Below, in pieces: positions 509-63,442 of a stretch of 64,000 nt of DNA. Both the position numbers and the translations under genes were made by a program. The stretch comes from Escherichia virus ESCO5 (taxonomy: Duplodnaviria > Heunggongvirae > Uroviricota > Caudoviricetes), in IMG/VR virus record IMGVR_UViG_2974610597_000001, one strand, 5' to 3'. Each line of letters starts with the position of its first letter. The first letter of the stretch is position 1. The notes under the pieces were generated by a model, which ran no database searches, was not told where the DNA came from, and saw only the letters and a program-made list of their open reading frames with translations.

Positions 509-988
509 ATGGAACTCAATAAAGATACACTGTGGGAACTCTTCAAAACCTTCGCTGGTTTTAAAGAGAATTCTGAATCCCAACAAGATTCTATACCATC
601 TCAAAAACCTGAAACTTTAGTCAAACAAAATAAATTTGATGAAGAAAAGATGCAGGTTATTGAGGTCTTGTATTGTCCACCTGAAGAAGACGATCTCCAC
701 GGAGAGCGCATGTCTGATTTGGAAATCAGGAAGATGGTTGACAACTTCAATGAGAATATTACCAACATTAGTGGTAATCTTGGTCACATGAAGAACACCG
801 ATAAGTTTTCTCCAATTAAAGCTTGGGTAAATGAAGTTGATTGTTACATTGGTGACGAACTCGTTGTGGAAGGAACTCCCCTCGTTAAAATCCAATTCAA
901 CGACCCTGAATTATATCAAGCTCGTAAAGACGGCGTTCTTAAAGGTTTGAGTATAGGCGCAATGGGCGTTAAAGTCAAGAAGGACTAA
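509..988 (+). CDS. hypothetical head-module protein (possible prohead protease or scaffold-associated)
   Basis: 159-aa ORF with RBS AAGAGG upstream, between probable portal and scaffold-like gene. Function assigned by position only. Confidence 0.5.
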   Translation: MELNKDTLWELFKTFAGFKENSESQQDSIPSQKPETLVKQNKFDEEKMQVIEVLYCPPEEDDLHGERMSDLEIRKMVDNFNENITNISGNLGHMKNTDKFSPIKAWVNEVDCYIGDELVVEGTPLVKIQFNDPELYQARKDGVLKGLSIGAMGVKVKKD

Positions 989-3547: not shown

Positions 3548-3567
3548 CAGAACTCTGTTAATATTAG

Positions 3568-3597
3568 AGGCTCGTCCGTGATGGGCGAGCCTTTTCT
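3568..3597 (+). terminator. hairpin terminator after the capsid gene
   Basis: AGGCTCG (3568-3574) pairs with CGAGCCT (3586-3592) across an 11-nt loop, followed by TTTTCTGTTT. Confidence 0.5.
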
Positions 3598-7525: not shown

Positions 7526-7548
7526 CGGCGGGGGTTAAGCCCCCGTTA
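7526..7548 (+). other. GC-rich hairpin after the sheath gene (possible RNA stabiliser or weak terminator)
   Basis: CGGGGG (7529-7534), loop TTAAG, CCCCCG (7540-7545); no clear U-tract follows. Confidence 0.35.
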
Positions 7549-8049: not shown

Positions 8050-8055
8050 TAAATA

Positions 8056-8077
8056 AAGGGCAGAAATGCCCTTTTTA
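8056..8077 (+). terminator. rho-independent terminator
   Basis: AAGGGCA (8056-8062), GAAA loop, TGCCCTT (8067-8073), then TTTTT. Confidence 0.65.
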
Positions 8078-8577: not shown

Positions 8578-8843
8578 CACCTGCGATTGAACATGCTATC
8601 GACACAGCAACGAAAACCCTTACTTTGAAGTGGTATGAGGTTATTCTTTGCAAAGTCGTTAAAGATACCTCGGAAACACTGAAAACATTGGATAACTACG
8701 GTGTAGATTATCTTTTAAAACTATATGAGTATTTAACATACGAAGAGTATGTTGAAGCCATGTATGTTAAAGACACTTCAATAAAGAGAAAACATCAAAA
8801 CCAGACAAATAAAATGTCAGATTTGTTTAAGAAACTTGTTTAA
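8484..8843 (+). CDS. tail assembly chaperone C-terminal extension (gpGT-like, reached by -1 frameshift)
   Basis: The -1 frame is open from 8484 to the stop at 8841-8843; the listed ORF 8625..8843 is its tail end and starts at TTG with no good RBS. Confidence 0.5.
   Translation, partial: SSGGKLRPFFQTRFRKTVHTASGDDEFSSKLTPAIEHAIDTATKTLTLKWYEVILCKVVKDTSETLKTLDNYGVDYLLKLYEYLTYEEYVEAMYVKDTSIKRKHQNQTNKMSDLFKKLV
8508..8514 (+). promoter_or_regulatory. candidate -1 ribosomal frameshift slippery heptamer T_TTT_TTC
   Basis: X_XXY_YYZ heptamer in the zero frame of the chaperone ORF, inside the 94-nt overlap with the -1 frame. Confidence 0.5.
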
Positions 8844-8863
8844 TCCAACACGAGGAACATACT

Positions 8864-10852
8864 TTGTTAGAAATTAACGCCTCCAAAATTAGTAACGTGG
8901 TTACGTTTAAGGTGGACAAGAACAGTCTCAAGGAAGCAAAAGATGCCGTGTTGAGTGTTCAGAAGTTTGCAAATAAAATGCAACCCACTATGAACATGAC
9001 CAAGTTTAGACAACAAATGAAAGAGATTGAGCGTGAACTTAAGAAAGCTCAAACTCAAAGTCAAAAACCTATGCGAGCACCTACTCCCGCTGGAGCGGGT
9101 GCTCCTGTAGGCGGATCTGGCAGACCTAGAACTCCTAAAACCCCGCAAGGAAGAGAAGAAGAAAAAGCTCGTAAAGCTGCTGAACGCGAAGCTAAAGCAG
9201 CAGCACGTAGGGAAGACTTAGGTAATCTTCGTTTGCAGAACTTTAACTATCGAGCAAGAGCATTTAGTAAAGCCAGTCCTGGCGCTATGCAAGAAGCTAG
9301 AGACGTTATGGGTAAAGCTGTAGAGCAATACAAAAAGGGTGAAATAACTCTTCAACGTATGAACCAAGCTCTTGCTCACCAGTTAGATGCTTTACGCAGA
9401 TCGCATCGTGAAAAGAATGCTGAAATAGAAGACGAGGTTCGTGGTCGCCGTCGTATTCGTAGAGAGCTAGAAGCAGAAGCTAAAACCCGTATACGTATGC
9501 GAAATCGTGAACTTAGAGATATAGAACGCAACCGTAAGCGTGAATTAGCTCAACAAAGACGTGATCGTGATCGTCGATATGGACAATTAAAAGAAGGTGC
9601 GGCAGGTCTTAATCCACGCATGATTGCATCCTCTTTGATCGGTGCTGGGTTATTTGCAGGGGGTTCTGTAGTTGGTAACACTTTGATGAATACTAACGAA
9701 AGGATTAAACTTGTAAGCCGTGGTGCTGAAAACGTTCAGACAAACGCCAACGCTATTTTGGCAATGACAGCTTGGGGTGAACAGAACGGTGTAGACTCTG
9801 CAAATATTATTAAGTCAATAGATAATATTAAAGACGTTCGTGAACGTCTTGGTAATACAGTTTTAGCCTCAAAATGGAATGAGAAAGAAGGGAAGTGGAA
9901 AGGCGGTGATAATGGCATAAATGACATTATGAACTTGTTTGGATGGAATCCAGAACAGCTTAAACCTTTACAGAACGATCCTTTGGCTTTTATTCAGGCT
10001 ACTGTTAATGAAGGTGAGCGTCGAGGTATGAACTCTGCTCAAATCGGGCGACTTCTTGAAAACCTTGGTGATGACCTTATGCACTACCAACGTATGTTTA
10101 GTAAAAACGGCGAAGGGTATAATGAAGTATTGAAAATGCTTCAAAGAACAGGTGCAACATTAACTCAAGAACAAATAGATGCTTCTAAAGAGTTTACTCG
10201 TTTTGCTGCAACAGTTCAGCTTGTAGGTCAAGGTATGCAGAACCATTTCTTAGAGGGTTTTGTGAAAGCCTTACCTAAAGATGATTCTTGGTTGGATAAC
10301 GTTAAAGTGCTAGATCAGTTTGCCAAAGATTTAGGTGAAGAACTTGGTAAGACAACAGTTCAATTAGGAGGTTTTGCTAAAGAATTGGGAGATGGTTTCG
10401 GATCTTTTACCAATTGGCTTAAAGAGACATTCCCAGACACCTTCGGAGACAACACAGATCCTAATAAATCTATGGCACAAAAGGCATATGAGGCAACGCA
10501 AAGTGGAGACAGCAATCCTGTAGCAGATTGGTTGTACAATTTAACAGGTATTGATACACAAGATGTTGGTCGTATGTGGAGAGGAGAACAAACAAGGACA
10601 CGTGCTTTTGGATTTGGTAATCCTCTTGAAGATTTACGTGAATCAGCCTATACACCTAACGTAAGTTTGGCTCGTAATCAACCTATTGTTGAGAATACGG
10701 TAGCAATACCAAGTGATCTTATCAAAGTTACGATCAGCCCTTCTTCAGAGTTTGGAAATATTCTTGATGCAAGAATTCAAAATAGCGGAAATAGCATTTT
10801 CCAACGTTTATCTCTTTCAACTCTAAGTGGACAATCTAACACTGGTGGTTAA
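8864..10852 (+). CDS. tail tape measure protein
   Basis: 662 aa; Arg/Lys/Glu-rich coiled-coil N-terminal half and Gly-rich hydrophobic segment; follows the chaperone pair; TTG start after GAGGA. Confidence 0.8.
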   Translation: MLEINASKISNVVTFKVDKNSLKEAKDAVLSVQKFANKMQPTMNMTKFRQQMKEIERELKKAQTQSQKPMRAPTPAGAGAPVGGSGRPRTPKTPQGREEEKARKAAEREAKAAARREDLGNLRLQNFNYRARAFSKASPGAMQEARDVMGKAVEQYKKGEITLQRMNQALAHQLDALRRSHREKNAEIEDEVRGRRRIRRELEAEAKTRIRMRNRELRDIERNRKRELAQQRRDRDRRYGQLKEGAAGLNPRMIASSLIGAGLFAGGSVVGNTLMNTNERIKLVSRGAENVQTNANAILAMTAWGEQNGVDSANIIKSIDNIKDVRERLGNTVLASKWNEKEGKWKGGDNGINDIMNLFGWNPEQLKPLQNDPLAFIQATVNEGERRGMNSAQIGRLLENLGDDLMHYQRMFSKNGEGYNEVLKMLQRTGATLTQEQIDASKEFTRFAATVQLVGQGMQNHFLEGFVKALPKDDSWLDNVKVLDQFAKDLGEELGKTTVQLGGFAKELGDGFGSFTNWLKETFPDTFGDNTDPNKSMAQKAYEATQSGDSNPVADWLYNLTGIDTQDVGRMWRGEQTRTRAFGFGNPLEDLRESAYTPNVSLARNQPIVENTVAIPSDLIKVTISPSSEFGNILDARIQNSGNSIFQRLSLSTLSGQSNTGG

Positions 10853-10859
10853 TAAAATA

Positions 10860-10881
10860 CCTCGCTTCGGCGGGGTTTTTT
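10860..10881 (+). terminator. rho-independent terminator
   Basis: CCTCGC, TTCG loop, GCGGGG (one G-U pair), then TTTTTT at 10876-10881. Confidence 0.7.
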
Positions 10882-10889
10882 CGTTTCCC

Positions 10890-10919
10890 TTGACACAAAG
10901 TTTCTATATGTGTTACAAT
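10890..10919 (+). promoter_or_regulatory. sigma70-like promoter (TTGACA - 17 bp - TTACAAT)
   Basis: -35 at 10890-10895 and -10 at 10913-10919, immediately after the terminator and upstream of the baseplate genes. Confidence 0.45.
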
Positions 10920-10978
10920 AATCAATATGGGAAGATCTTGCATCTTCCTTTTGGCATTATCATTACTACGAGGTTATC

Positions 10979-11680
10979 ATGGCAGCAATGACTCCACAAC
11001 AGTCGGTGAGAGCCGTCTATAAGGCAGAACAGGAAATCAACTCTACCGAGAATAAAAATACCTCGGCATCTACTGTAAAGGGTGATAATGGTTTCTGCAT
11101 TTTAGCAAGTGTTTATAATAGTTCAAGTGATCAATACATTCAAAACTTTAAAGCAATTACTTTCGATTCGGTCCCTGAAGTAGGTGTAACTCGTGAGGCA
11201 GATGTTACAAGTTTTCCAGTAGAATCAGGATCGGATGTAAGTGACCACGTTCAAATAAAAAACAACAGATTTAAACTTTCAGGTATAATTACCGAAACAC
11301 CAATTCGGCTTATGCGAGATCAATTATACAGTGCAGGTGTAAATGGAGCAAGGATTTCTCAAGCAATAGAATATCTAGATCAAATATTTGAGTCAAGACA
11401 ACCAATAGTTCTTTTGACAGAACACAGGACTTTTGAAAATGTTATTCTGAAAGGCTACTCTTATGATTATAAATCTGAATTTGCTATGCAATTTGATTTA
11501 GAGTTCGAACAAATTCGTCTAGTCTCTAAGGCCACTACTAATGCTATTGCTGTAAAAACAGCACCAAATAAGTCAACTGGTGGTGATGTGAAAGGTCAAG
11601 TCGCTTCTAATGGTCCTAAGTCAGATATTACAGTAAGAACTGCTGAAGCTACTAATACCCCAACAAACAACGGAGGTTAA
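10979..11680 (+). CDS. tail or baseplate-associated structural protein
   Basis: 233-aa ORF, first gene after the tape measure; by position only. Confidence 0.4.
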   Translation: MAAMTPQQSVRAVYKAEQEINSTENKNTSASTVKGDNGFCILASVYNSSSDQYIQNFKAITFDSVPEVGVTREADVTSFPVESGSDVSDHVQIKNNRFKLSGIITETPIRLMRDQLYSAGVNGARISQAIEYLDQIFESRQPIVLLTEHRTFENVILKGYSYDYKSEFAMQFDLEFEQIRLVSKATTNAIAVKTAPNKSTGGDVKGQVASNGPKSDITVRTAEATNTPTNNGG

Positions 11681-11682
11681 TA

Positions 11683-12096
11683 GTGACAACTTATTCTAAA
11701 ACAACAAGGTCTACAAGTAATACTGGCTACAGTGCAGTTTATCTGGAGGACCATTCTACTTATTTTGCATGGTATCTGAAAACTGAAGAGTACCCTGATC
11801 AAACATATACAGTTACATTGGATGGAGTTGATTATGACATTCGTTTAAGGTGGAACACTAGGGACGAGTCTTGGCAATGTCAGATAGGATTATCTGGAGA
11901 TGATCCAAGTATAAGTTTCAAAGTTACAAATGGTTTAGATCTTCTTAAACCTTATAAATATCTTGAAAGTGTGCCAGATGGTCAATTGTATATAGTAGAT
12001 ACAGTTAAGATTAATGGTCGTCCTGGGTATACAACTACAGGTCGAGATAAACGTTTTGTATTGGTTTATATTGATAACAAACCTAATCAGGCGTAA
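11683..12096 (+). CDS. hypothetical baseplate protein
   Basis: 137-aa ORF tightly packed in the baseplate operon. Confidence 0.4.
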   Translation: MTTYSKTTRSTSNTGYSAVYLEDHSTYFAWYLKTEEYPDQTYTVTLDGVDYDIRLRWNTRDESWQCQIGLSGDDPSISFKVTNGLDLLKPYKYLESVPDGQLYIVDTVKINGRPGYTTTGRDKRFVLVYIDNKPNQA

Positions 12097-12105
12097 GGAG
12101 ATAAT

Positions 12106-13116
12106 ATGGCAGAAAGAGAGTATACAAAAGCTCCTGCCCCTAATTTAAACAGGGCATACAAATTATTAATTGGTTCTGCCACAAACACAATACAGAAGAG
12201 AACTAAGAACTCGGCATTTAAATCTACAGTAGATTTGGATACTAAGTTAGGCACAACAGAAAAATCCTCTTCTAATTTGTATTTGTTGCAAGACCATCAA
12301 ATAACCTTCAGCATTAAGAAAGATAATAATAAAGATCCTAACCAAGCAGAGATTGTAGTTTATAATCTATCGGATGATACTGTTAACTATATAAACCGTG
12401 GTATCCGAAATAACTTGGCGGTTGCTCTAGCGGTAGGATACGAAGGTGAAGAGTTGGTTATGATTTTCAAAGGAACTATCCAATGGGTTAGTGATACTTT
12501 TGACTCGGTAGACAGGAAAACCACTTTACACTGTTTGGATGGCGGTATTAACATTGCAGAAGCAAGAACAAGCCGCAGTTATCCAAAAGGAACTAAAATC
12601 AAACGTGTTGTGACAGATTTGGTAAAAGATTTAGGAACTACAGAAGGTAATATACACGTAGACAATGATCAAACCTTATCCTCAGCAACAGCTATGTGTG
12701 GAAACACTTCACATTACCTAGAACATATTTGTAAAAGTATTGATCACAATGTGTCAATACAAGATGGATCTGTTTATGTCACTCCTCGTTCACAAATGTC
12801 TAGTGCACGTAGCGCCTACATTAGCCCTGAAACTGGTCTGATAGGAAGTCCAGAACCATTCCACAACGATATAAAACCTACTAAAAAAGTTACCAAGTCC
12901 TCTAAGAAGGCAAAGAAACCTACAGATGGTGTTAAATTCAAATGCCAAATGAATGGTGCAATACTACCAGAAAAAACAATCTGGTTAAAAAGCCGAGATT
13001 ATGATGGTCCATTTAAAGTTGTTTCTGTTTCTCACAATGGTGATAAAGAGGGTAAAGAGTGGGTTACTGAAGTGGAGTGTGTATCCGTGTCTGAAATAAT
13101 GACTAAGGAGAAATAA
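12106..13116 (+). CDS. putative baseplate hub protein
   Basis: 336 aa directly upstream of the spike gene; RBS AAGGAG. Confidence 0.4.
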   Translation: MAEREYTKAPAPNLNRAYKLLIGSATNTIQKRTKNSAFKSTVDLDTKLGTTEKSSSNLYLLQDHQITFSIKKDNNKDPNQAEIVVYNLSDDTVNYINRGIRNNLAVALAVGYEGEELVMIFKGTIQWVSDTFDSVDRKTTLHCLDGGINIAEARTSRSYPKGTKIKRVVTDLVKDLGTTEGNIHVDNDQTLSSATAMCGNTSHYLEHICKSIDHNVSIQDGSVYVTPRSQMSSARSAYISPETGLIGSPEPFHNDIKPTKKVTKSSKKAKKPTDGVKFKCQMNGAILPEKTIWLKSRDYDGPFKVVSVSHNGDKEGKEWVTEVECVSVSEIMTKEK

Positions 13117-13850
13117 TGGATGCATTGAATTTTGTCACAGCAATGCGTGGCTTAATGACAGAACAATTAGCAGAAGTCCATACAGCCCTGCCAGTCCGTG
13201 TGACTGGCGTTAATTATGGTGCTAAAACTGTCACTTTAGAATCTATTGTTAAAAACACACGATCTAGTGAAGATGAAATAGATTATCCTACTTTTGAAGA
13301 TGTTCCTTTTATGGTTAATGGGGGTGGGACAGGAAGAATCTCATTCCCTATTAAAGCTGGCGATTTAGGAACTGTTATATTTTCTGAAAGAGATCCTTCT
13401 AATGCACTGCAAACTAGTGGAGAAACCTCTTCATCATCCACTTTTATGCAGCCTTGTGGATTATACCCTATTTGTTTTATTCCCAAAATAGCTACAGGAA
13501 CAGATTCAACAGAAGCCGTAGATTCTGAAAAGGTAGTTATTTCTAATAACAAAAACACGTACGCTTCTTTCGACCCTACAGGTAATATTTCAATATGGAA
13601 TAGTCAAGGGATGAAAATAGATATTACTACCTCCGGTATTACTATTACAGATGGCACAGGGACTTTGGATCTAAAAGGTGGTAATTTAACTTTCAAAGGC
13701 GGCGTGGCAGATATCAATGGTCTTAAAATAGATCAGAACGGTTTGATGACAGATGGTAATGGCATCGGATTCCATACTCACACGCACACGGTTCGTAACA
13801 TTCAGAGCGGTAACTCAAGTGCCGAGTCCTTAAAACCAACAGGAGCCTAA
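13116..13850 (+). CDS. baseplate central spike protein (gpV/gp5-like)
   Basis: 244 aa; Gly/Thr-rich repetitive C-terminal half ending in GIGFHTHTHTV, an HxH-type motif like the metal-binding tip of P2 gpV-type spikes. Confidence 0.55.
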   Translation: MDALNFVTAMRGLMTEQLAEVHTALPVRVTGVNYGAKTVTLESIVKNTRSSEDEIDYPTFEDVPFMVNGGGTGRISFPIKAGDLGTVIFSERDPSNALQTSGETSSSSTFMQPCGLYPICFIPKIATGTDSTEAVDSEKVVISNNKNTYASFDPTGNISIWNSQGMKIDITTSGITITDGTGTLDLKGGNLTFKGGVADINGLKIDQNGLMTDGNGIGFHTHTHTVRNIQSGNSSAESLKPTGA

Positions 13851-13851
13851 C

Positions 13852-14478
13852 ATGGGAATCCCTTTTGACTTAAAACTTGGGCCAAACAACGACCTCATCA
13901 TGGATGATGGGGATTTGGTCCTCACTACAACCAGAACAGAAATTGCAGCACAAACTCTTGGGATAACTCTGAACACGTATCGTGGAGAGTGGTTTTTAAA
14001 TACTAACTTCGGTGTTCCTTACTTACAAGAGATTATTGGTGTTGCTAGAAAGAAAGATATTGTAGACAGAATATTTTTAGCAGAGATTGCCAAAAACGTT
14101 TACATAGATACAATAAACAGTTATAAATCTGCTTATGACATGGATCAACGTTATTACTCAATGACAGTTATGGTGACAGTTGGAGCAGATACAGTAACAT
14201 CCATATTCAATACTCAACCTTCTGAAGAGTTTATTTACCCTGAAGCTGGTGAAGACAATGCAGCGATCATTTGTGAAGCTTACAGTATTGTTGAGAATTC
14301 GAATAGACTTTATCGCTTTATCAACTTTGTTGGTTTGCCACGTGATACCTACTCTACTTGGTGGAATGAATGGTCTACAGAGTCAGCAGGGGAAAGAATC
14401 ATGGTTAACGAAAAAGGTGATGCATTAGCTACAAACAATAATTTCGGTATAACAGCTATGACAGGAGTAGAAGAATAA
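13852..14478 (+). CDS. baseplate wedge protein (gpW/gp25-like)
   Basis: N-terminal segment EIAAQTLGITLNTYRGEWFLNTNFGVPYLQEI resembles the gp25/GPW signature; directly follows the spike gene. Confidence 0.5.
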   Translation: MGIPFDLKLGPNNDLIMDDGDLVLTTTRTEIAAQTLGITLNTYRGEWFLNTNFGVPYLQEIIGVARKKDIVDRIFLAEIAKNVYIDTINSYKSAYDMDQRYYSMTVMVTVGADTVTSIFNTQPSEEFIYPEAGEDNAAIICEAYSIVENSNRLYRFINFVGLPRDTYSTWWNEWSTESAGERIMVNEKGDALATNNNFGITAMTGVEE

Positions 14479-30221: not shown

Positions 30222-30245
30222 GAGAGGGGGATTCCCCCTCTTCTT
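30222..30245 (+). terminator. hairpin terminator
   Basis: GAGAGGGGG, ATT loop, CCCCCTCTT. Confidence 0.5.
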
Positions 30246-32302: not shown

Positions 32303-32305
32303 CAG

Positions 32306-32330
32306 AAGCCCCGAAAGGGGCTTTCTTTTT
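32306..32330 (+). terminator. rho-independent terminator
   Basis: AAGCCCC, GAAA loop, GGGGCTT, then TTTCTTTTT. Confidence 0.7.
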
Positions 32331-32343
32331 ATGGAGGGTTTAA

Positions 32344-35016
32344 ATGTTTCCAATTCCAATATTTACTATTATGACCAGCACTGGTGTCGTTCCTCTGCCA
32401 GCAGGTATTGTTAAAAAAGTAATCACTCTAGATTACCCAGATAATGCTGGCAATTCTAATAGCAGTTTAGCAATTTTGCTTAATGATGGTAGATTGTTTA
32501 CTCAAGGCGCAAACCTTTTTGGTGAGATTGCAGATGGAACTCGTAGTGCACGATTCAATAATTTCCACTTAGCTTCTACTGTAGTAGCGGATGTGTTTAC
32601 CGCAGATCGTTGTTTTGTTATTAAAACTAACAGTGGGGGATGGCAATATTCAGGATTGACAGCAGGGTTGGTAGGATCTATAGCAGCAGGTGGTACGGAT
32701 GCATGTGTAACTACTTGGACCAGCTTTCCATCTGTAATAACAGGGACTATCTCTTTAGCCAATCTTAAAGAGGTTAAGGGAGGATATAACAACACTCTCT
32801 GGTTGATGAATAGTGGTGTTCTTTATGGATCAGGTCAAAACACAGTAGGCAGTTTAGGTGCAAGTACTACTAACGAAGTTTCTACTCCTCGTCAGATAAC
32901 AAGTGCAGCAGTTGCTTTTGATGCAGGTTACAACCAATGCTCTTATGTCAACAATGTGGGAACCTTGCGTGTTTGTGGGGCTAGTAAAGGTTTAGCAGGT
33001 AATAATAACACAACAACAGCTTTTGTCAATGCCAAGATATCCGCTACTGAAACAGTGTATGTCAAAGATTACATCAATACAGTTTCCCAGACAATAGTTG
33101 TAGGAGATACCTCCGGTGGCACGGGTACAGTAAACTACTTATATGTTAGATCTAATACAGAAACAACCTACACTAAACTGGACACCTTTGCAGCAGGTTT
33201 CTCAACATGGAAATTTCCACCAAGCCGCCACTCTTTTTTCGTTGGGATCAATAATTCCTTGTGGGCTATTGGTAAGAACTACACTGCAAACTTAGGTTTG
33301 GGGTATGATTCTGCGAGCGGAGATCCACTCCAAGTGGGAAAACCAGTTAAACCTGAAGGAGTGGGTTCCTGGGATATAAACAAGCTCACAAGCGTTCATA
33401 CACTGAATATGGATGTTACTAACCAATTAGGTTATCAAGGAACCTTTTTCGTTTATAATGGAGATATGTATTATTCAGGTATTTGGAAAGATGGGAAAGC
33501 CTCGTATCTGTTCAATAGTGGTCTAAACTATAATAAATTCACACCAATAGCAAGCTCCGTGATTACAGGGGATGTTCTGGCAACTGGCTTAACTACAGAT
33601 TCTTTAGGAATTTGTATTGTAGGTGGAACTAAACAGTTGACACATTCTGTTAGCCCAGAAGGAGGTAAACTTTTCAATATTAAATACACTTCTTCTGCCC
33701 CTGCAAACATGACAATATCATCTACTGGTTTAATGACTTTCCATGCAGAAGGTGGTTTTGATGCAGGTATGACAGCCTTAAACGCTGAAGGAACAATTTT
33801 ATCAGATACCTCTGGAGGATATGCTTCAACATTGAGTGTTTACACCCCTAGCTTATCTGCGATGGATGTAGGAACAACACAAACAATGGTAGCAGAAATA
33901 ACACCAACAGGAGCAGCAAGCTTACCTGATATGGTTGTTGAGTATACAACTACAGATCCTAATGTTGCTACAGTAGATCCTACAACTGGTGTAATAACTG
34001 GTGTTGGTGATGGTGGTTGTAGGATTGGTTGCACAGCTACGTATCAAGGTGTTGTTACCGCTTCTGATAGTTCTTATTTAACGGTGAATGCTGTTGCGGG
34101 AAAGGAGTTAGCTCCATCTCCGAGTAGTAGTTTAACGGTTCTAAACGGATATTTCAACCACTCGGCAGATGGGGCAATTACGTTCCCAACTTTATCGGGT
34201 ACTGTTACACCAGCTAACTTTGTAGTTAAGGTGGATGACGTTGTAGTTCCTTCAAGTAAAGTAATATTTAGAAACAAAGCTTTCTCTACAGTGGATAGTT
34301 ATCCAGCAGGAGAATATAGACTGGCTATTGAATTTGCAAGTGCTTCAGTAGTTAATAGTGTGGAAGTGTCTATGGAAGCAAACCCAAGTCTTTTAGAACT
34401 TTGGGGCGGTAATAGAATCAGTTATTCTACAAGCCCAGCCTCACAATTCTTAAAAGGTTGTGCTAACTTAAGACGAATAACTTCTGATTGTTTTAGTAAC
34501 ACATCTTACACCGGAACATCTATAAGCGGTATCTTCTCTGGCTGCACAAGTTTGACAGCTATCCCTGAAGGATTATTCAGTGATGCTTTATTTCCTTCAA
34601 TGACAACAATGTCAAGCACGTTTGAAGGTTGTACATCTTTAACATCTATTCCTTCAGATTTATTTAAGAATCTGTCAAAAGTTACAAGATATTCTTACAC
34701 CTTTAAAGATTGCACCTCTCTTGCAGAAGTTCCAGCAGGAATGTTTGATAATATTCCAACGAAAGTGACCTCTTTAACAGCTACATTCCAAGGTTGTTTA
34801 GGACTTACAGATTTTAATAAGATCTTTAATGACAACCCAGGGTTAACTGTTTGTGGTAAACGTGGAGCATTATCTTCTTTCTTTAGTGGATGCACAAATC
34901 TTACAGGAACAGGAACAACATTAACAAATACATTAGGCGGAGTAGCTAATAGTTACCTATTCAGGTATTGCACAAAACTTTCTGATTATAACAACATTCC
35001 TTCCGGTTATAAATAA
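32344..35016 (+). CDS. tail fibre or receptor-binding protein with Ig-like (Big_2-type) domain and C-terminal BspA-type leucine-rich repeats
   Basis: 890 aa; Big_2-like segment (TTTDPNVATVDPTTGVITGVGDGGCRIGCTATYQGVVTA); five or six C-terminal F.GCTSLT.IP..LF repeats. Confidence 0.55.
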   Translation: MFPIPIFTIMTSTGVVPLPAGIVKKVITLDYPDNAGNSNSSLAILLNDGRLFTQGANLFGEIADGTRSARFNNFHLASTVVADVFTADRCFVIKTNSGGWQYSGLTAGLVGSIAAGGTDACVTTWTSFPSVITGTISLANLKEVKGGYNNTLWLMNSGVLYGSGQNTVGSLGASTTNEVSTPRQITSAAVAFDAGYNQCSYVNNVGTLRVCGASKGLAGNNNTTTAFVNAKISATETVYVKDYINTVSQTIVVGDTSGGTGTVNYLYVRSNTETTYTKLDTFAAGFSTWKFPPSRHSFFVGINNSLWAIGKNYTANLGLGYDSASGDPLQVGKPVKPEGVGSWDINKLTSVHTLNMDVTNQLGYQGTFFVYNGDMYYSGIWKDGKASYLFNSGLNYNKFTPIASSVITGDVLATGLTTDSLGICIVGGTKQLTHSVSPEGGKLFNIKYTSSAPANMTISSTGLMTFHAEGGFDAGMTALNAEGTILSDTSGGYASTLSVYTPSLSAMDVGTTQTMVAEITPTGAASLPDMVVEYTTTDPNVATVDPTTGVITGVGDGGCRIGCTATYQGVVTASDSSYLTVNAVAGKELAPSPSSSLTVLNGYFNHSADGAITFPTLSGTVTPANFVVKVDDVVVPSSKVIFRNKAFSTVDSYPAGEYRLAIEFASASVVNSVEVSMEANPSLLELWGGNRISYSTSPASQFLKGCANLRRITSDCFSNTSYTGTSISGIFSGCTSLTAIPEGLFSDALFPSMTTMSSTFEGCTSLTSIPSDLFKNLSKVTRYSYTFKDCTSLAEVPAGMFDNIPTKVTSLTATFQGCLGLTDFNKIFNDNPGLTVCGKRGALSSFFSGCTNLTGTGTTLTNTLGGVANSYLFRYCTKLSDYNNIPSGYK

Positions 35017-35019
35017 GAA

Positions 35020-35046
35020 AAGGAGCCATTTGGCTCCTTTCTTTTA
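35020..35046. terminator. bidirectional terminator between the convergent modules
   Basis: AAGGAGCC, ATTT loop, GGCTCCTT, flanked by an A-tract upstream and T-tract downstream. Confidence 0.7.
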
Positions 35047-35976: not shown

Positions 35977-36369
35977 TTACATTAATTTTGCACAGAAAGA
36001 GCGGAGTCTTTCCATATCATCTTGCTCTAACAGGTATTTACCTTTACCTATTCCAACTCCAATTTCACCGTTAGGGAAATGAACTATTTGCACTGGAAAA
36101 CCTCCGAGTTTAATTGTGGCAGCTTTGCCTTCTTCGTCTATAACGTTTCGGATTGTATCTTGCAGTGAAATGAATTCTTTGTTTGTAACAGTGGCTTCAA
36201 TTATTTCAGAGGTTTCAACACGAGCCGTTAGCTTCTTGTCTCCACCTTGAATAATCAAAATTTGAAAATAAAAAGAGTTGTCAAGACCTACAACATTTTT
36301 CTCAACTAGTGTCAAACTGGTATAATTTCCATAAACAGTTTCAACAGCTATTTTAGAACGTTCAGTCAT
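35977..36369 (-). CDS. hypothetical protein
   Basis: 130-aa ORF with ATG start and AGGATAG upstream. Confidence 0.45.
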   Translation of the reverse strand: MTERSKIAVETVYGNYTSLTLVEKNVVGLDNSFYFQILIIQGGDKKLTARVETSEIIEATVTNKEFISLQDTIRNVIDEEGKAATIKLGGFPVQIVHFPNGEIGVGIGKGKYLLEQDDMERLRSFCAKLM

Positions 36370-36414
36370 TGAATGCTATCCTATCATAAAATGTTTAATA
36401 TTGTCAAGCTTTAA

Positions 36415-37588: not shown

Positions 37589-37637
37589 ATCTCCTCCTAT
37601 AAAGGGGCAGAAGCCCCTTATAAAACAATATGTTAGA

Positions 37638-42238: not shown

Positions 42239-42267
42239 AGTATAAGTCCCTTCCGTAAAGTTGTCAA
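42239..42267 (-). promoter_or_regulatory. sigma70-like promoter (TTGACA - 17 bp - TATACT)
   Basis: On the - strand, -35 at 42267-42262 and -10 at 42244-42239. Confidence 0.5.
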
Positions 42268-42271
42268 CAGG

Positions 42272-42299
42272 TATTTTTAATAAAAGGGCCGAAGCCCTT
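42272..42299 (-). terminator. rho-independent terminator after primase-helicase
   Basis: On the - strand AAGGGC, TTCG loop, GCCCTT, then TTATT; stem overlaps the primase-helicase stop codon. Confidence 0.55.
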
Positions 42300-48734: not shown

Positions 48735-48766
48735 ATTTTGCCTCCTTTTTAAGTTAACGAATTTCT

Positions 48767-48795
48767 AGTATAACACGATAGAGGCTTTATTGCAA
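48767..48795 (-). promoter_or_regulatory. sigma70-like promoter (TTGCAA - 17 bp - TATACT) upstream of the endolysin
   Basis: On the - strand, -35 at 48795-48790 and -10 at 48772-48767. Confidence 0.45.
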
Positions 48796-48815
48796 GAGGG
48801 GGATTTCTCCCCCTC
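48796..48815 (-). terminator. GC hairpin after the TerD-like gene
   Basis: GAGGGGG / CCCCCTC inverted repeat directly abutting the -35 hexamer. Confidence 0.4.
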
Positions 48816-49718: not shown

Positions 49719-49947
49719 TTCTTCCTCCTAATATTATCTCCGGTTTATATATACGAAGAATTATAGCATTTTCATTTTCTTTGTCAACCCATTCTTCATA
49801 ATCAGGCCATACATGAATCTCTACTCTACTTACAATATCTTCCATTCGCACAGTCCCAATGAAATACTCTTTGAGACTGCACATAATGAAAGCTTCTCTC
49901 TCGCGCCAATAATTTTCTATGACTTGAGAGGCAAGCTCGTCGATCAT
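49699..49947 (-). CDS. hypothetical protein
   Basis: 82-aa ORF. Confidence 0.4.
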   Translation of the reverse strand: MIDELASQVIENYWREREAFIMCSLKEYFIGTVRMEDIVSRVEIHVWPDYEEWVDKENENAIILRIYKPEIILGGRSVKLRN

Positions 49948-55437: not shown

Positions 55438-55455
55438 AGCCTCCCGAAGGAGGCT
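55438..55455 (-). terminator. hairpin terminator after terC
   Basis: On the - strand AGCCTCC, TTCG loop, GGAGGCT, then ATTTTAT. Confidence 0.45.
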
Positions 55456-55461
55456 CATCTA

Positions 55462-56535
55462 TTAAACAGCAGCTTCTTCTTTTTCAGGGAAGATAAAGCT
55501 TGCAATAACACCAAGAGATAATGTGCCTAGAACAATCATCAGACTTACGTTAGGGGAAATATCATGCGGGAGGAATGACCACTTGGCATGAAGTGTTTCA
55601 CCGAACGGGTGATACATAAGTTTAGCACCAACAAACACCAGAACCACAGCAACAGCTTTCTCTAAGTGAACCAGATATTTCACAGCTACACTTAACACAA
55701 AGAAAAGTGCACGTAAACCAAGAACAGCCATCAGCATTGCAGAATAAACTAGCAGAGGTTCTTGTGTCACACCGATTACAGCCGGAACTGAATCAAAAGA
55801 GAAGACAATATCTGTAAGCTCAATAACAAACACACAAAGAAGAGCAGGAGTTGCATATTTAATACCATTCTTAATGGTAATGAACTTTTCACCATCTAGT
55901 GCATTGTGCACAGGCAGAACTTTACCTACTAAACGAACAGCCCAATGCTTAGAGTAATCAATATCCTCTTCTTCGTCACCACCTTTGATGATAGCCACGG
56001 CAGACCAAGCTACAATCAAACCGAACAACACTTGGACCGACCAATGAAGGTTAAACAAAGCGGTCCCTGCTGCAACAAAAATACCTCGGAAGACAATGGC
56101 TCCTGCAATCCCCCAAAGTAAAATCTTATGTTGAAGATGTGTGCTCTTAATTCCAAAGCTTGCAAAAATTGCCATGAATACCATCAGGTTATCTACAGAA
56201 AGACTCTTTTCCAACACATAGCCACTTAGGAAAAGCGCGGCAAACTCTTTACCATGTTCTACCCAAATGAATGCGTAATATCCTAAAGCTAAAGCAATCC
56301 AAAAAACAGACCAAAGCAAAGCAGATTTAATTCCAATTTCTTTATTTTTACCATGTTCTACCCAAATGAATGCGTAATATCCTAAAGCTAAAGCAATCCA
56401 AAAAACAGACCAAAGCAAAGCAGATTTAATTCCAATTTCTTTATTCTCTTTATGACCAAAGAAATCGATACCAATAGACAATGCCAAAATACCAACTAAA
56501 ACAACTACATCAATAATTGGGAAACCGAGTTGCAT
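55462..56535 (-). CDS. terC: TerC-family integral membrane protein
   Basis: Multi-pass membrane protein with LEKSLSVDN and TDIVFSFDSVPAV motifs; contains an internal exact 33-aa duplication. Confidence 0.8.
   Translation of the reverse strand: MQLGFPIIDVVVLVGILALSIGIDFFGHKENKEIGIKSALLWSVFWIALALGYYAFIWVEHGKNKEIGIKSALLWSVFWIALALGYYAFIWVEHGKEFAALFLSGYVLEKSLSVDNLMVFMAIFASFGIKSTHLQHKILLWGIAGAIVFRGIFVAAGTALFNLHWSVQVLFGLIVAWSAVAIIKGGDEEEDIDYSKHWAVRLVGKVLPVHNALDGEKFITIKNGIKYATPALLCVFVIELTDIVFSFDSVPAVIGVTQEPLLVYSAMLMAVLGLRALFFVLSVAVKYLVHLEKAVAVVLVFVGAKLMYHPFGETLHAKWSFLPHDISPNVSLMIVLGTLSLGVIASFIFPEKEEAAV
56248..56445. repeat. perfect 99-bp tandem duplication (2 copies) inside terC
   Basis: 56248-56346 is identical to 56347-56445; in frame; CTCTTTA occurs at both 56245-56251 and 56446-56452. 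Confidence 0.95.
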
Positions 56536-56616
56536 TCTTTTCTCCTCTCTTTGCGGGGAACTATTCCCCGCTTCATTTGATATATATCTTACTCTTTTTA
56601 AGAACTATGTCAACAC

Positions 56617-58165: not shown

Positions 58166-58814
58166 TTACAATTTCTCCTCTTTTAAGTTTCTCTAGTAAG
58201 TCGTTAGGGTTCTTAATATGACAGAAGTTAATCCCTATGTCAACACATTTACCATCAAATTCTTCGCTGTCCCCAACATGTAAAATCTCTTCAGCCTTCA
58301 AAGGAATGCTTGAATATGTGGCGGTCCTAACAAAGAATCTAGGATCTGGTTTACATAACAGATGTTCGTCTGAAAAATGCATAAATTCAAAACAATTCCA
58401 ACTGTCGAACATACAAGCACGACGCAAAATATCCCCAGATATAAAATTAGTATTGCTTTTAATACTAAGATCATATTTACCAGACAAGTATAGCAAACAA
58501 ACTGGCAAATCTAAAGCGATATGTGGAGGAAATTTAAGAAACCATTGCTCACAATCAAAACGCATTTGTGCAGATTCTACAGGGGTTAAACCTATCTTTC
58601 TTCCCAACATATTCCATGCATATGCTACACCTTCTGCACACCCATTTAGTGCAGCATTATCCATAATTTCTTTGGCATCTTTATATGCTTCTTTTGCCGC
58701 ACGTTCAGACATTCTACCATATGTAGCAATAGTGTGCGTACGTGCATCTGCATAGTTTTGATTGGCAGAAATAAGAGTATTCCATACATCAAAAGAAATA
58801 TGTTTTATTGTCAT
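58158..58814 (-). CDS. HAD-superfamily phosphatase-like protein
   Basis: N-terminal ISFDVWNTL (motif I-like), LSIKSNT, C-terminal HVGDSEEFD; start moved to internal ATG at 58814. Confidence 0.5.
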   Translation of the reverse strand: MTIKHISFDVWNTLISANQNYADARTHTIATYGRMSERAAKEAYKDAKEIMDNAALNGCAEGVAYAWNMLGRKIGLTPVESAQMRFDCEQWFLKFPPHIALDLPVCLLYLSGKYDLSIKSNTNFISGDILRRACMFDSWNCFEFMHFSDEHLLCKPDPRFFVRTATYSSIPLKAEEILHVGDSEEFDGKCVDIGINFCHIKNPNDLLEKLKRGEIVNA

Positions 58815-61923: not shown

Positions 61924-62000
61924 TATTAATCCTTATTTTGTGAGTAGAACTATTATTCTACCTCTTTCAACCGAAAAAAGCTTTGAGGGAAATCAAAAAA

Positions 62001-62025
62001 GGCGCAAAGTGCGCCTTTAAGTTTT
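62001..62025 (-). terminator. rho-independent terminator upstream of nrdD
   Basis: On the - strand GGCGCA, CTT loop, TGCGCC, then TTTTTTGATTT. Confidence 0.65.
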
Positions 62026-62026
62026 A

Positions 62027-63442
62027 TCATTTGGAGAGGAATTGTCTTCCCATGATCTTACCGTTCTTCACAGCGGTCCCATCGTGTCCATTGTAATCCC
62101 AGGTTCCATCGATATTACGCAAGAAGCTATCACGAACAGTATAGGCTTTACCGTTCTCTACTTTACTTTCTTCCACAATGATTGCCATAACAAGCTTATT
62201 TTCAATTTCGGTAGTAACCGATTCTTTGATACCCTCTGTAACTTCACGATCATATTGGATATAAACTCGCTCCTCGGTTACTTGCACGTCTACCACATTT
62301 TTAAATGTGTAGGTCTGTTGCGTAGTGTAGAGGACACGAACGACACTCTTCTTACCTACCGGAGGCTTCTTACGAGGCTTACGGTAACGTGGTTTAGGGT
62401 TGTTAGTTGGAAGCCAACCAACAATATCCCGATCATATCCAACATGACCCCAAGTGAAATGCGTAGCCGATCCACTATCCGTAGTTCCGTCACGAAAGAG
62501 AACTTCTACGTGACCACCACAAGGGCGGTGTCCACCATTATTATAGTTGTATTTTGCCGTGCGCGGGAGAATGAAGTATTCTTTAATCGCCCACTCTTCC
62601 AGATTGTCGATATTCCAAGTGAATACTGTTCCCTTAGCAACATCTGTTTGACCATTGTTGAAGCGAACCTGCACGAAATCTTCCGAAGGCATAACACCTG
62701 TGTTCGGCAGATATTCAAATGCAGTATCTTCCGCTACAAACTGTTCTTCCTCTTGCTCCTCAATACTTGGCACAGGCGCAGCTTCATCGTATTTCGCAGC
62801 AAACATATTTTTAAATTCTTGAGCCGTGACTTCTACAAGGCCGCGATCACCAGTAGCAGCAGAGTGTGGGCGTGGTAAATCCCCAACTTCAATATGCATT
62901 GCATCTAAGCCTGCTTGACGATCAAAGAAGATAACCTTGCGGAATTGTTTATCTTTATATTGTGGCAGTTCATACATACTTGGATCGATTGTCTTCAAAC
63001 GTTCAGCATCTTCTGGCTTCCAGAAGCTTTTACCTGTTGCAAATCTAAAGTCTACCAGTAGTTTAACAACATCTCCTAATGATAAACTATCTGCATCTAC
63101 GAAAACGTCTTCGATTCCCAATAACCCTGATTTCTTAAGAATCAAATCTAACATGTAACCTCCTGTGGTTTGTTCTGCGTCTGGATAACGATCAACACTG
63201 GTGCTGGTTACACCGTTTATTTCACCAGTGGAGGCATTGTAGGAAATATATGGGAAGGTCATATCGTTCATTGCAAAATCACCTGAACAGGTTGGATCAT
63301 CTTCTCCCTCCCAGCCATACACCTTCACAATACCTTCACACAATTTGTCATACACACCAGCGCGACGTGCTGCTTCAGCAACTTCCTGTTTACGGGCAAA
63401 TTTATTAATCATGATTCCTCCTGTTAATTGCCATAGATGCAC
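62027..63442 (-). CDS. hypothetical large protein (possible enzyme of the accessory biosynthetic module)
   Basis: 471-aa ORF; likely true start is the internal Met (MINKFARKQ) after GGAGGA near 63411; no motif identified by eye. Confidence 0.5.
   Translation of the reverse strand: MHLWQLTGGIMINKFARKQEVAEAARRAGVYDKLCEGIVKVYGWEGEDDPTCSGDFAMNDMTFPYISYNASTGEINGVTSTSVDRYPDAEQTTGGYMLDLILKKSGLLGIEDVFVDADSLSLGDVVKLLVDFRFATGKSFWKPEDAERLKTIDPSMYELPQYKDKQFRKVIFFDRQAGLDAMHIEVGDLPRPHSAATGDRGLVEVTAQEFKNMFAAKYDEAAPVPSIEEQEEEQFVAEDTAFEYLPNTGVMPSEDFVQVRFNNGQTDVAKGTVFTWNIDNLEEWAIKEYFILPRTAKYNYNNGGHRPCGGHVEVLFRDGTTDSGSATHFTWGHVGYDRDIVGWLPTNNPKPRYRKPRKKPPVGKKSVVRVLYTTQQTYTFKNVVDVQVTEERVYIQYDREVTEGIKESVTTEIENKLVMAIIVEESKVENGKAYTVRDSFLRNIDGTWDYNGHDGTAVKNGKIMGRQFLSK

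Follow-up and report, generated by a model that had tools for sequence, protein, structure and literature searches.

In T4-type phages, small composites of a terminator and a promoter with near-perfect sigma70 hexamers have been described as promoter-early stem-loops, or PeSLs (Arbiol et al. 2010, PMC2839356; Comeau et al. 2014, PMC4122927). Transcriptional isolation of the genes they flank has been proposed for them, as has a role as recombination linkers (PMC2839356, PMC4122927). In rV5, which like ESCO5 is a large myovirus and is related to it but belongs to a different subfamily, 33 consensus-like promoters (11 of them extended -10) and 20 terminators were predicted genome-wide, and host polymerase was thought possibly to be used without reprogramming, the same inference as is drawn here (Kropinski et al. 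2013, PMC3606486). For Certrevirus, the published promoters of this kind are limited to the early and middle regions (PMC7344957). Dozens of predicted terminators are routinely given in papers on Phapecoctavirus isolates, and no transcript mapping for Phapecoctavirus or Stephanstirmvirinae was found in the literature searched.

The window analysed here is a 64,000-nt stretch of Escherichia phage ESCO5 (Phapecoctavirus, Stephanstirmvirinae), a phAPEC8-like myovirus with a genome of ~150 kb. An initial annotation had described recurrent cassettes in it, each a tetraloop hairpin terminator followed by a near-perfect sigma70 promoter. We conclude that these sites very probably represent ordinary transcription-unit boundaries of a large virulent coliphage without an annotated polymerase. 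The layout has already been described for related phages and involves no new kind of element and no new mechanism; promoters and terminators are routinely predicted in this way, as they had been for rV5. The rV5 paper contains no cross-genus conservation analysis (PMC3606486). The ESCO5 boundary map is conserved, and hence trustworthy, for phAPEC8/phi92-like therapeutic phages, where it helps engineering and the choice of strong portable promoter and terminator parts.

Window, gene content and scoring

Over bases 10000–14000, the window shows 100% identity to Escherichia phage ESCO5 and vB_EcoM_REC, and as a whole it matches ESCO5 NC_047776.2 from position 63035 on. The sole difference is a perfect 99-bp (33-codon, in-frame) tandem duplication in terC (window 56248–56445), which is not in RefSeq ESCO5 NC_047776.2 and could be either a real variant or an assembly/version difference. 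The structural module, from the portal to the tail fibres, occupies the plus strand (1–35016), and genes for replication, nucleotide metabolism, Ter-family proteins and endolysin lie on the minus strand (35073–64000). Only ~2.7% of the sequence is non-coding. Rfam searches at gathering thresholds returned no match within the window.

The gene labels used in the initial annotation agree with Pfam for TerD, TerC, the endolysin (Hydrolase_2) and the first baseplate gene (Dit-like), while primase/helicase comes from the record annotation. The gene at 509–988 (+) is labelled 'DNA methyltransferase' in RefSeq, and likewise in phi92. It matches the XkdF-like phage serine protease family in Pfam (Peptidase_S78_2, E = 1.4e-11), and its place between the portal and scaffold genes is consistent with a prohead protease. 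The apparent 286-nt gap that separates the tail chaperone gene from the tape-measure gene (8578–8863, +) holds an ORF in the -1 frame (8625–8843), and phi92 annotates gp133 there. This is probably a programmed-frameshift extension of the chaperone rather than intergenic DNA.

Promoters were scored with a sigma70 matrix whose hexamer frequencies follow the E. coli promoter literature rather than a curated model, with spacers of 15–19 nt and a bonus for TGn. Within the window, matches scoring at least 11 were counted in 19 co-directional intergenic gaps and in 500 dinucleotide shuffles of the same gaps; the genome-wide scan used scores of at least 13, with the expectation taken from block shuffles. 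Post-stop hairpins were counted in the 19 gaps at a minimum free energy (MFE) of -10 kcal/mol or below and compared with shuffles.

Enrichment of sigma70-type promoters between genes

Sense-strand matches were detected in six of the 19 co-directional gaps, at 444, 10890, 36407, 42267, 48795 and 56613, and antisense matches in none; the shuffles yielded 0.25 ± 0.49, and not one of the 500 reached six. TGn is present at 10890 (site 1), 48795 (site 3) and 36407, and absent at 42267 (site 2), 444 and 56613. The five promoters of the initial annotation, including the two without a preceding hairpin (444–472, and 56613–56586 upstream of terC), can all be read directly in the sequence, as can its three hairpin-then-promoter sites, but its list had overlooked the sixth at 36407–36378 (-).

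The whole-genome motif search that the initial annotation had recommended gave 25 sense intergenic matches scoring at least 13, against 0.13 expected. In-gene sense matches were also in excess (20 against 3.7 expected), and some upstream genes may thus carry embedded promoters. Antisense matches stayed at chance, with one intergenic and six in-gene against 4.3 expected. In total, ~40 intergenic sense promoters are spread over all modules of the genome; in the late region they lie upstream of the tRNA cluster, the spanin-terminase block (gap 58205–58411), the portal, the prohead protease and the Dit gene.

In an AT-rich genome such matches might simply arise by chance. Indeed, a loose consensus scan of 60 kb (at least 9/12) found no more sites than shuffled sequence did (52 vs 56±7, 55 vs 52±8 and 67 vs 58±8), and several strong antisense matches lie inside genes, for example at 33029, 24665 and 3638. 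Weak matches are thus noise, and enrichment is confined to top-scoring, intergenic, sense-strand matches. For these, however, a chance origin is refuted by the gap shuffles, by the genome-wide enrichment and by conservation at site 1, where the hexamers are invariant at ~56% background identity. We regard it as vanishingly improbable.

The promoter-like elements are conserved across Stephanstirmvirinae genera. In relatives that are ~70% identical, the putative -35 and -10 elements, the TG extension and the spacer length are invariant; spacer sequences drift, and hairpins persist with altered stems. The promoters at 444, 36407 and 56613 are likewise kept in phi92, phiWec and Tr1.

Several promoter-like sites inside genes (49787, 45295, 55003, 58243, 51183 and 63544) are also conserved, but they were set aside as evidence, as coding constraint could explain their retention. 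One of them, at 49760–49787 (-), is unique in the window in combining a 12/12 sigma70 match with TG; situated within the 3' end of hyp204 and 42 nt ahead of hyp205, it is kept in phiWec190.

Co-occurrence of hairpins and promoters

Hairpins after stop codons are also frequent. At the MFE threshold they were found in 14 of the 19 gaps, against 3.3 ± 1.5 in shuffles, and about ten carry canonical T-runs. The recurrent cassette of the initial annotation nevertheless dissolves as a unit. Promoter and hairpin occur together in three gaps, against ~4 expected if six promoters and 13 hairpins were placed independently in 19 gaps, and genome-wide a hairpin precedes only six of the ~40 intergenic promoters. 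This co-occurrence rules out hairpin–promoter pairing as a special arrangement, and the sites have no extended similarity. The two elements stand side by side for want of non-coding space, of which the genome has almost none, and do not make up a composite element.

These observations bear on the possibility that the sites are PeSL-like mobile regulatory cassettes, that is, repeated terminator/promoter modules acting as linkers for recombination and thereby shuffling the flanked genes. The composite layout does fit the published description (PMC2839356, PMC4122927): an intergenic stem-loop terminator or attenuator with G-run/C-run stems stands beside a near-consensus sigma70 promoter at three sites in the window and six genome-wide, and the interval holding site 2 is an indel hotspot. 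However, PeSLs are a repeated, BLAST-detectable family concentrated in hyperplastic regions and recombining into mini-circles. When seven intergenic regions (six cassettes, and the gap that separates the RNR-like gene from nrdD, which has only a terminator) were compared with the ESCO5 genome by BLASTN, only matches of 16–22 nt were retrieved, mostly with E >= 0.03. The shared nucleotides are essentially the UUCG hairpin or TTTTTTATTGACA, which rules out a PeSL-type repeat family. Unlike PeSLs, moreover, most ESCO5 cassettes lie at fixed core-gene junctions, sites 1 and 3 and promoter 444 being found at the same junctions of conserved genes across genera; only site 2 is indel-associated, and ESCO5 is not T4-like. 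Mobile cassettes are therefore an improbable explanation.

Boundaries at sites 1 and 2

Site 1 separates the tape-measure gene from the Dit-like baseplate gene. A putative intrinsic terminator (10859–10882, +) follows the tape-measure gene, with ACCTCGC-TTCG-GCGGGGT at 10859–10876 and then T6. The promoter (10890–10919, +; matrix score 15.3) consists of TTGACA at 10890–10895 and TACAAT at 10914–10919, separated by 18 nt of which the last three are TGT; 11 of its 12 hexamer positions agree with consensus, and the Dit-like gene starts 60 nt beyond it, at 10979. Across five lineages (ESCO5, phiWec190, phi92, Citrobacter Tr1 and Klebsiella FKP3), the bases TTGACA, TG and TA..AT never vary, nor does the 18-nt spacer length, at a mean column identity of 56%. 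The hairpin is kept in phi92, UAB_1 and Tr1 and is identical in three of the five aligned lineages, while phiWec190 has swapped it for GGGGC-TTCG-GCCCC and FKP3 lacks a terminator hairpin. In phage Schickermooser (99.6% identical), it had already been annotated as an ARNold terminator (-13.9).

A second hairpin, GGAAGAT-CTTGC-ATCTTCC (10930–10948, +), lies near the predicted 5' end of the transcript from site 1. A hairpin is found at this position also in phi92, Tr1 and phiWec190, the phi92 and Tr1 sequences being unrelated. Stem-loops at the 5' terminus, of the type known from ompA, stabilise mRNAs, and the hairpin at 10930–10948, which lies a few nucleotides past the predicted start site, is probably such a stabilising element.

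At the site 1 junction of FKP3 (segment ~585–645), the GC hairpin is missing, and the entire TTGACA-18-TATCAT promoter lies between the arms of a 13-bp inverted repeat (TTGTACATCAGT...ACTGATGTACAA).

Site 2 follows the primase/helicase gene. Directly 3' of its stop codon is a terminator-like hairpin (42279–42297, -), GGGC-TTCG-GCCC at 42297–42286 and then TTTTATT. Its stem is short, and its fold energy is no better than that of shuffles (z = -0.37). The promoter (42239–42267, -; score 15.2) comprises TTGACA at 42267–42262, a 17-nt spacer and TATACT at 42244–42239. With 11/12 hexamer matches and no TGn, it stands 34 nt ahead of hyp217. Conservation of the hairpin is variable; a hairpin is present here in phiWec190, and none occurs in Klebsiella phage 05F01, where TTGACA-17-TAAGAT is kept at the same junction. 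The interval between primase and DNA polymerase is an indel hotspot when ESCO5, phi92, phiWec190 and 05F01 are compared. In ESCO5 it holds hyp217 and a Dam methylase; in phi92 another gene, with a hairpin and then TTTACA-17-(TG)TACAGT behind it; in phiWec190 only a hairpin abutting TTGACT; and in 05F01 three genes.

At such boundaries, a GC-rich tetraloop hairpin after a gene block, with a U-run at sites 1 and 2, would stop or attenuate polymerase arriving from upstream, and a sigma70-type promoter, often with TGn, would let host RNA polymerase start afresh on the block that follows. The 273 annotated ESCO5 features include none named as an RNA polymerase, and the host sigma70 holoenzyme is therefore the natural reader of these promoters. 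We consider it highly probable that this holoenzyme initiates at them, that incoming transcription is terminated or attenuated at the site 1 and site 2 hairpins and that promoter-proximal hairpins stabilise 5' ends; what the sequence itself shows is the presence, sense-strand bias, enrichment and conservation of the elements, from which we infer initiation, termination efficiency and timing. The interpretation given in the initial annotation is partly supported, and its 'insulated' units would presuppose efficient termination at the hairpins. As many ESCO5 proteins have no annotated function, a phage sigma factor or modifier is conceivable, and one may be encoded among them.

Site 3 and the endolysin gene

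The hairpin at site 3 (48796–48815, -), GAGGGGGA-GAAA-TCCCCCTC, follows the TerD-domain gene and abuts the -35 hexamer (dG -15.7). In ESCO5 the next bases are TTGCAATA, that is, there is no U-tract. The predicted endolysin promoter (48767–48795, -; score 11.9) has TTGCAA at 48795–48790, a 17-nt spacer with TGT, and TATACT at 48772–48767. Its hexamers match consensus at 9/12 positions, and the TG extension, which compensates for a weak -35, makes it credible as an extended -10 promoter. In eight aligned sequences TTGC-A, TG, TA...T, the Shine-Dalgarno (SD) sequence and the TTG start are invariant, and the hairpin persists. It is noticeable that the conserved start codon of the endolysin is TTG.

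Site 3 calls for corrections to the initial description. 'Near-perfect' promoters hold for sites 1 and 2 and not for site 3, and the same division applies to 'hairpin terminator', since T6 and TTTTATT follow the first two hairpins, whereas the third does not qualify as a canonical terminator in ESCO5. The distance of at most 10 nt between hairpin and promoter is true only when counted from the end of the T-run (7, 11 and 0 nt). Canonical E. coli intrinsic terminators of the UUCG/GNRA type, with a GC stem, a tetraloop and a T-run after the stop codon, resemble sites 1 and 2 and the hairpins at 8055, 32305, 35019, 55438 and 61998, whereas site 3 and a few others lack the T-run.

In the promoter spacer of site 3, the motif GCCTCT (48780–48785, -) is complementary to the endolysin SD AGGAGGC at 48746–48740 and is a candidate anti-SD. 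All six lineages that were folded have a pyrimidine motif in this spacer that pairs with the SD of the endolysin (TCCTT in Klebsiella phages). Across these lineages, the probability that the SD is unpaired is 0.04–0.18 in read-through RNA and 0.28–0.64 in promoter-initiated RNA; with shuffled upstream sequence it is 0.26–0.44. As judged from these folds, the anti-SD can hide the endolysin ribosome-binding site in read-through RNA and would be absent from locally initiated RNA. If this reading is true, endolysin would be translated only when its own promoter fires.

A promoter-embedded anti-SD as a general design was rejected, the mean z being +0.08 over 20 intergenic promoters. Among these, SD occlusion was detected only at the terminase–portal junction, site 2 and site 3.

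The site 3 hairpin may let polymerase through, and a broader alternative is that the hairpins, chiefly this one, are not terminators at all but serve 3'-end protection, processing or pausing, with upstream transcription reading through. The U-tract is missing at site 3 not only in ESCO5 but also in phi92, phiWec and Tr1, the T-runs at three other hairpins (7528–7546, 30222–30241 and 37602–37619) are weak, and a conserved anti-SD makes sense only if read-through transcripts exist. Canonical T-runs nevertheless accompany both the site 1 and site 2 hairpins and at least six others, and in Klebsiella phages the site 3 hairpin is GGGGC-GAAA-GCCCC followed by TTTT. We regard read-through as a real possibility, though on balance not the probable one, and retain termination or attenuation as the preferred reading for sites 1 and 2.

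The portal–protease junction and late timing

In agreement with the initial annotation, promoters are found within the structural module, preceding the prohead protease–scaffold–capsid block and the Dit/baseplate block. The first of these (444–472, +; TTGACA-17-TAGACT, score 14.5) lies between the portal gene and the XkdF-like prohead protease gene, with 10/12 hexamer matches, a 17-nt spacer and no TGn. An inverted repeat (457–496, +), AAATATCC..(18)..GGATATCT (ATATCC-N18-GGATAT), brackets its -10 element and is followed by T5 (dG -13.1). In five lineages the region is 100% conserved over ~60 nt, from TATTGACAAA to TTTTTA, against about 73–79% identity for the alignment spanning the surrounding portal and protease genes. 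One arm of the repeat lies upstream of the predicted start, so the hairpin with U5 can form only in transcripts coming from the portal gene. The repeat may be an operator for a late regulator, or a terminator acting only on incoming upstream transcripts, and the invariant region as a whole looks like a regulated promoter.

In the 149-kb genome, TATCC-N(11-26)-GGATA was detected four times, at 55963, 58809, 61698 and 63494 (the last being window position 460). All four are confined to 7.6 kb (55.9–63.5 kb) where the late region begins; each lies at a promoter or close to one, and their spacing varies. A role of the motif as a genome-wide operator gains no support from its total count, which equals the shuffle expectation, though all four copies are clustered.

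We tentatively propose, although we think it unlikely, that some boundary promoters are interlocked with a signal acting only on transcripts from upstream.

Consensus host-type promoters precede head and baseplate genes, and therefore something else must set late timing. Site 1 in particular, with a perfect -35 and an extended -10, would fire at once on naked DNA, a poor fit to late expression unless it is repressed or redirected. One alternative is that late genes use a phage factor or a modified polymerase, the sigma70 promoters in the structural module being early, constitutive or regulated auxiliary starts. Consistent with this, rV5 has a T4-late-like motif upstream of late genes beside its sigma70 sites (PMC3606486), the sigma70-like promoters of Certrevirus are confined to early and middle regions (PMC7344957), the conservation at 444 extends well past the hexamers and includes an inverted repeat, and the 24 kb downstream of site 1 contain no sigma70 match. 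However, inspection by eye of the structural-module gaps in ESCO5 found neither a T4-late-like motif nor any other shared alternative motif, and the late-region promoters resemble the others, with TTGACA/TTGACT, 17–18-nt spacers and TG. A separate late factor is accordingly somewhat doubtful, and initiation by the host holoenzyme remains our preferred reading for the structural module as well.

Further promoters and terminators

The terC promoter (56586–56613, -; TTGACA-16-TAAGAT, score 12.1) has 10/12 hexamer matches and no TGn, and TTGAC with the 16-nt spacing is kept in phi92, phiWec190 and Tr1. Downstream of it, in the 5'-UTR, is a hairpin (56553–56571, -), GCGGGGAA-TAG-TTCCCCGC. In four lineages 93.8% of its cells are paired, and three pairs have changed on both sides. 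Located, like the hairpin at 10930–10948, a few nucleotides past a predicted start and supported by these compensatory changes, it resembles the ompA-type stem-loops, and both hairpins probably stabilise the 5' ends of new transcripts.

Several predicted terminator hairpins stand apart from the three sites. On the plus strand they follow the major capsid gene (3566–3594; z = -3.9, with no promoter behind), the gene following the tail sheath gene (8055–8074), which is annotated as a virion structural protein and is the tube protein by position only, and the tail-fibre gene gp227 (32305–32324, hairpin plus T-run). A bidirectional terminator (35019–35040) lies between the convergent structural and replication modules. 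On the minus strand, a terminator with a UUCG loop after terC (55438–55455) is retained by phiWec190 and Tr1, where its stem differs, and the one after the RNR-like gene (61998–62018) has no sigma70 match behind it; at the same junction phi92 has an unrelated terminator hairpin.

The sixth intergenic promoter (36378–36407, -; TTGACA-18-(TGA)TAGGAT, 10/12, score 13.8) is kept in phi92 and phiWec190. It ends 8 nt ahead of the ATG of hyp224 (window 36369–36407, -; 10 nt in phi92), and its predicted transcript would be leaderless or nearly so. The AGGA inside its -10 element could act as an SD for read-through RNA.

Outside the window, promoters at the small-ORF right end of the genome (141335–147668) mostly have 16-nt spacers, several of them being TTGACA-16-(TGA)TAAGAT, whereas spacers of 17–18 nt predominate elsewhere. 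These right-end promoters may represent a distinct, perhaps immediate-early, promoter class.
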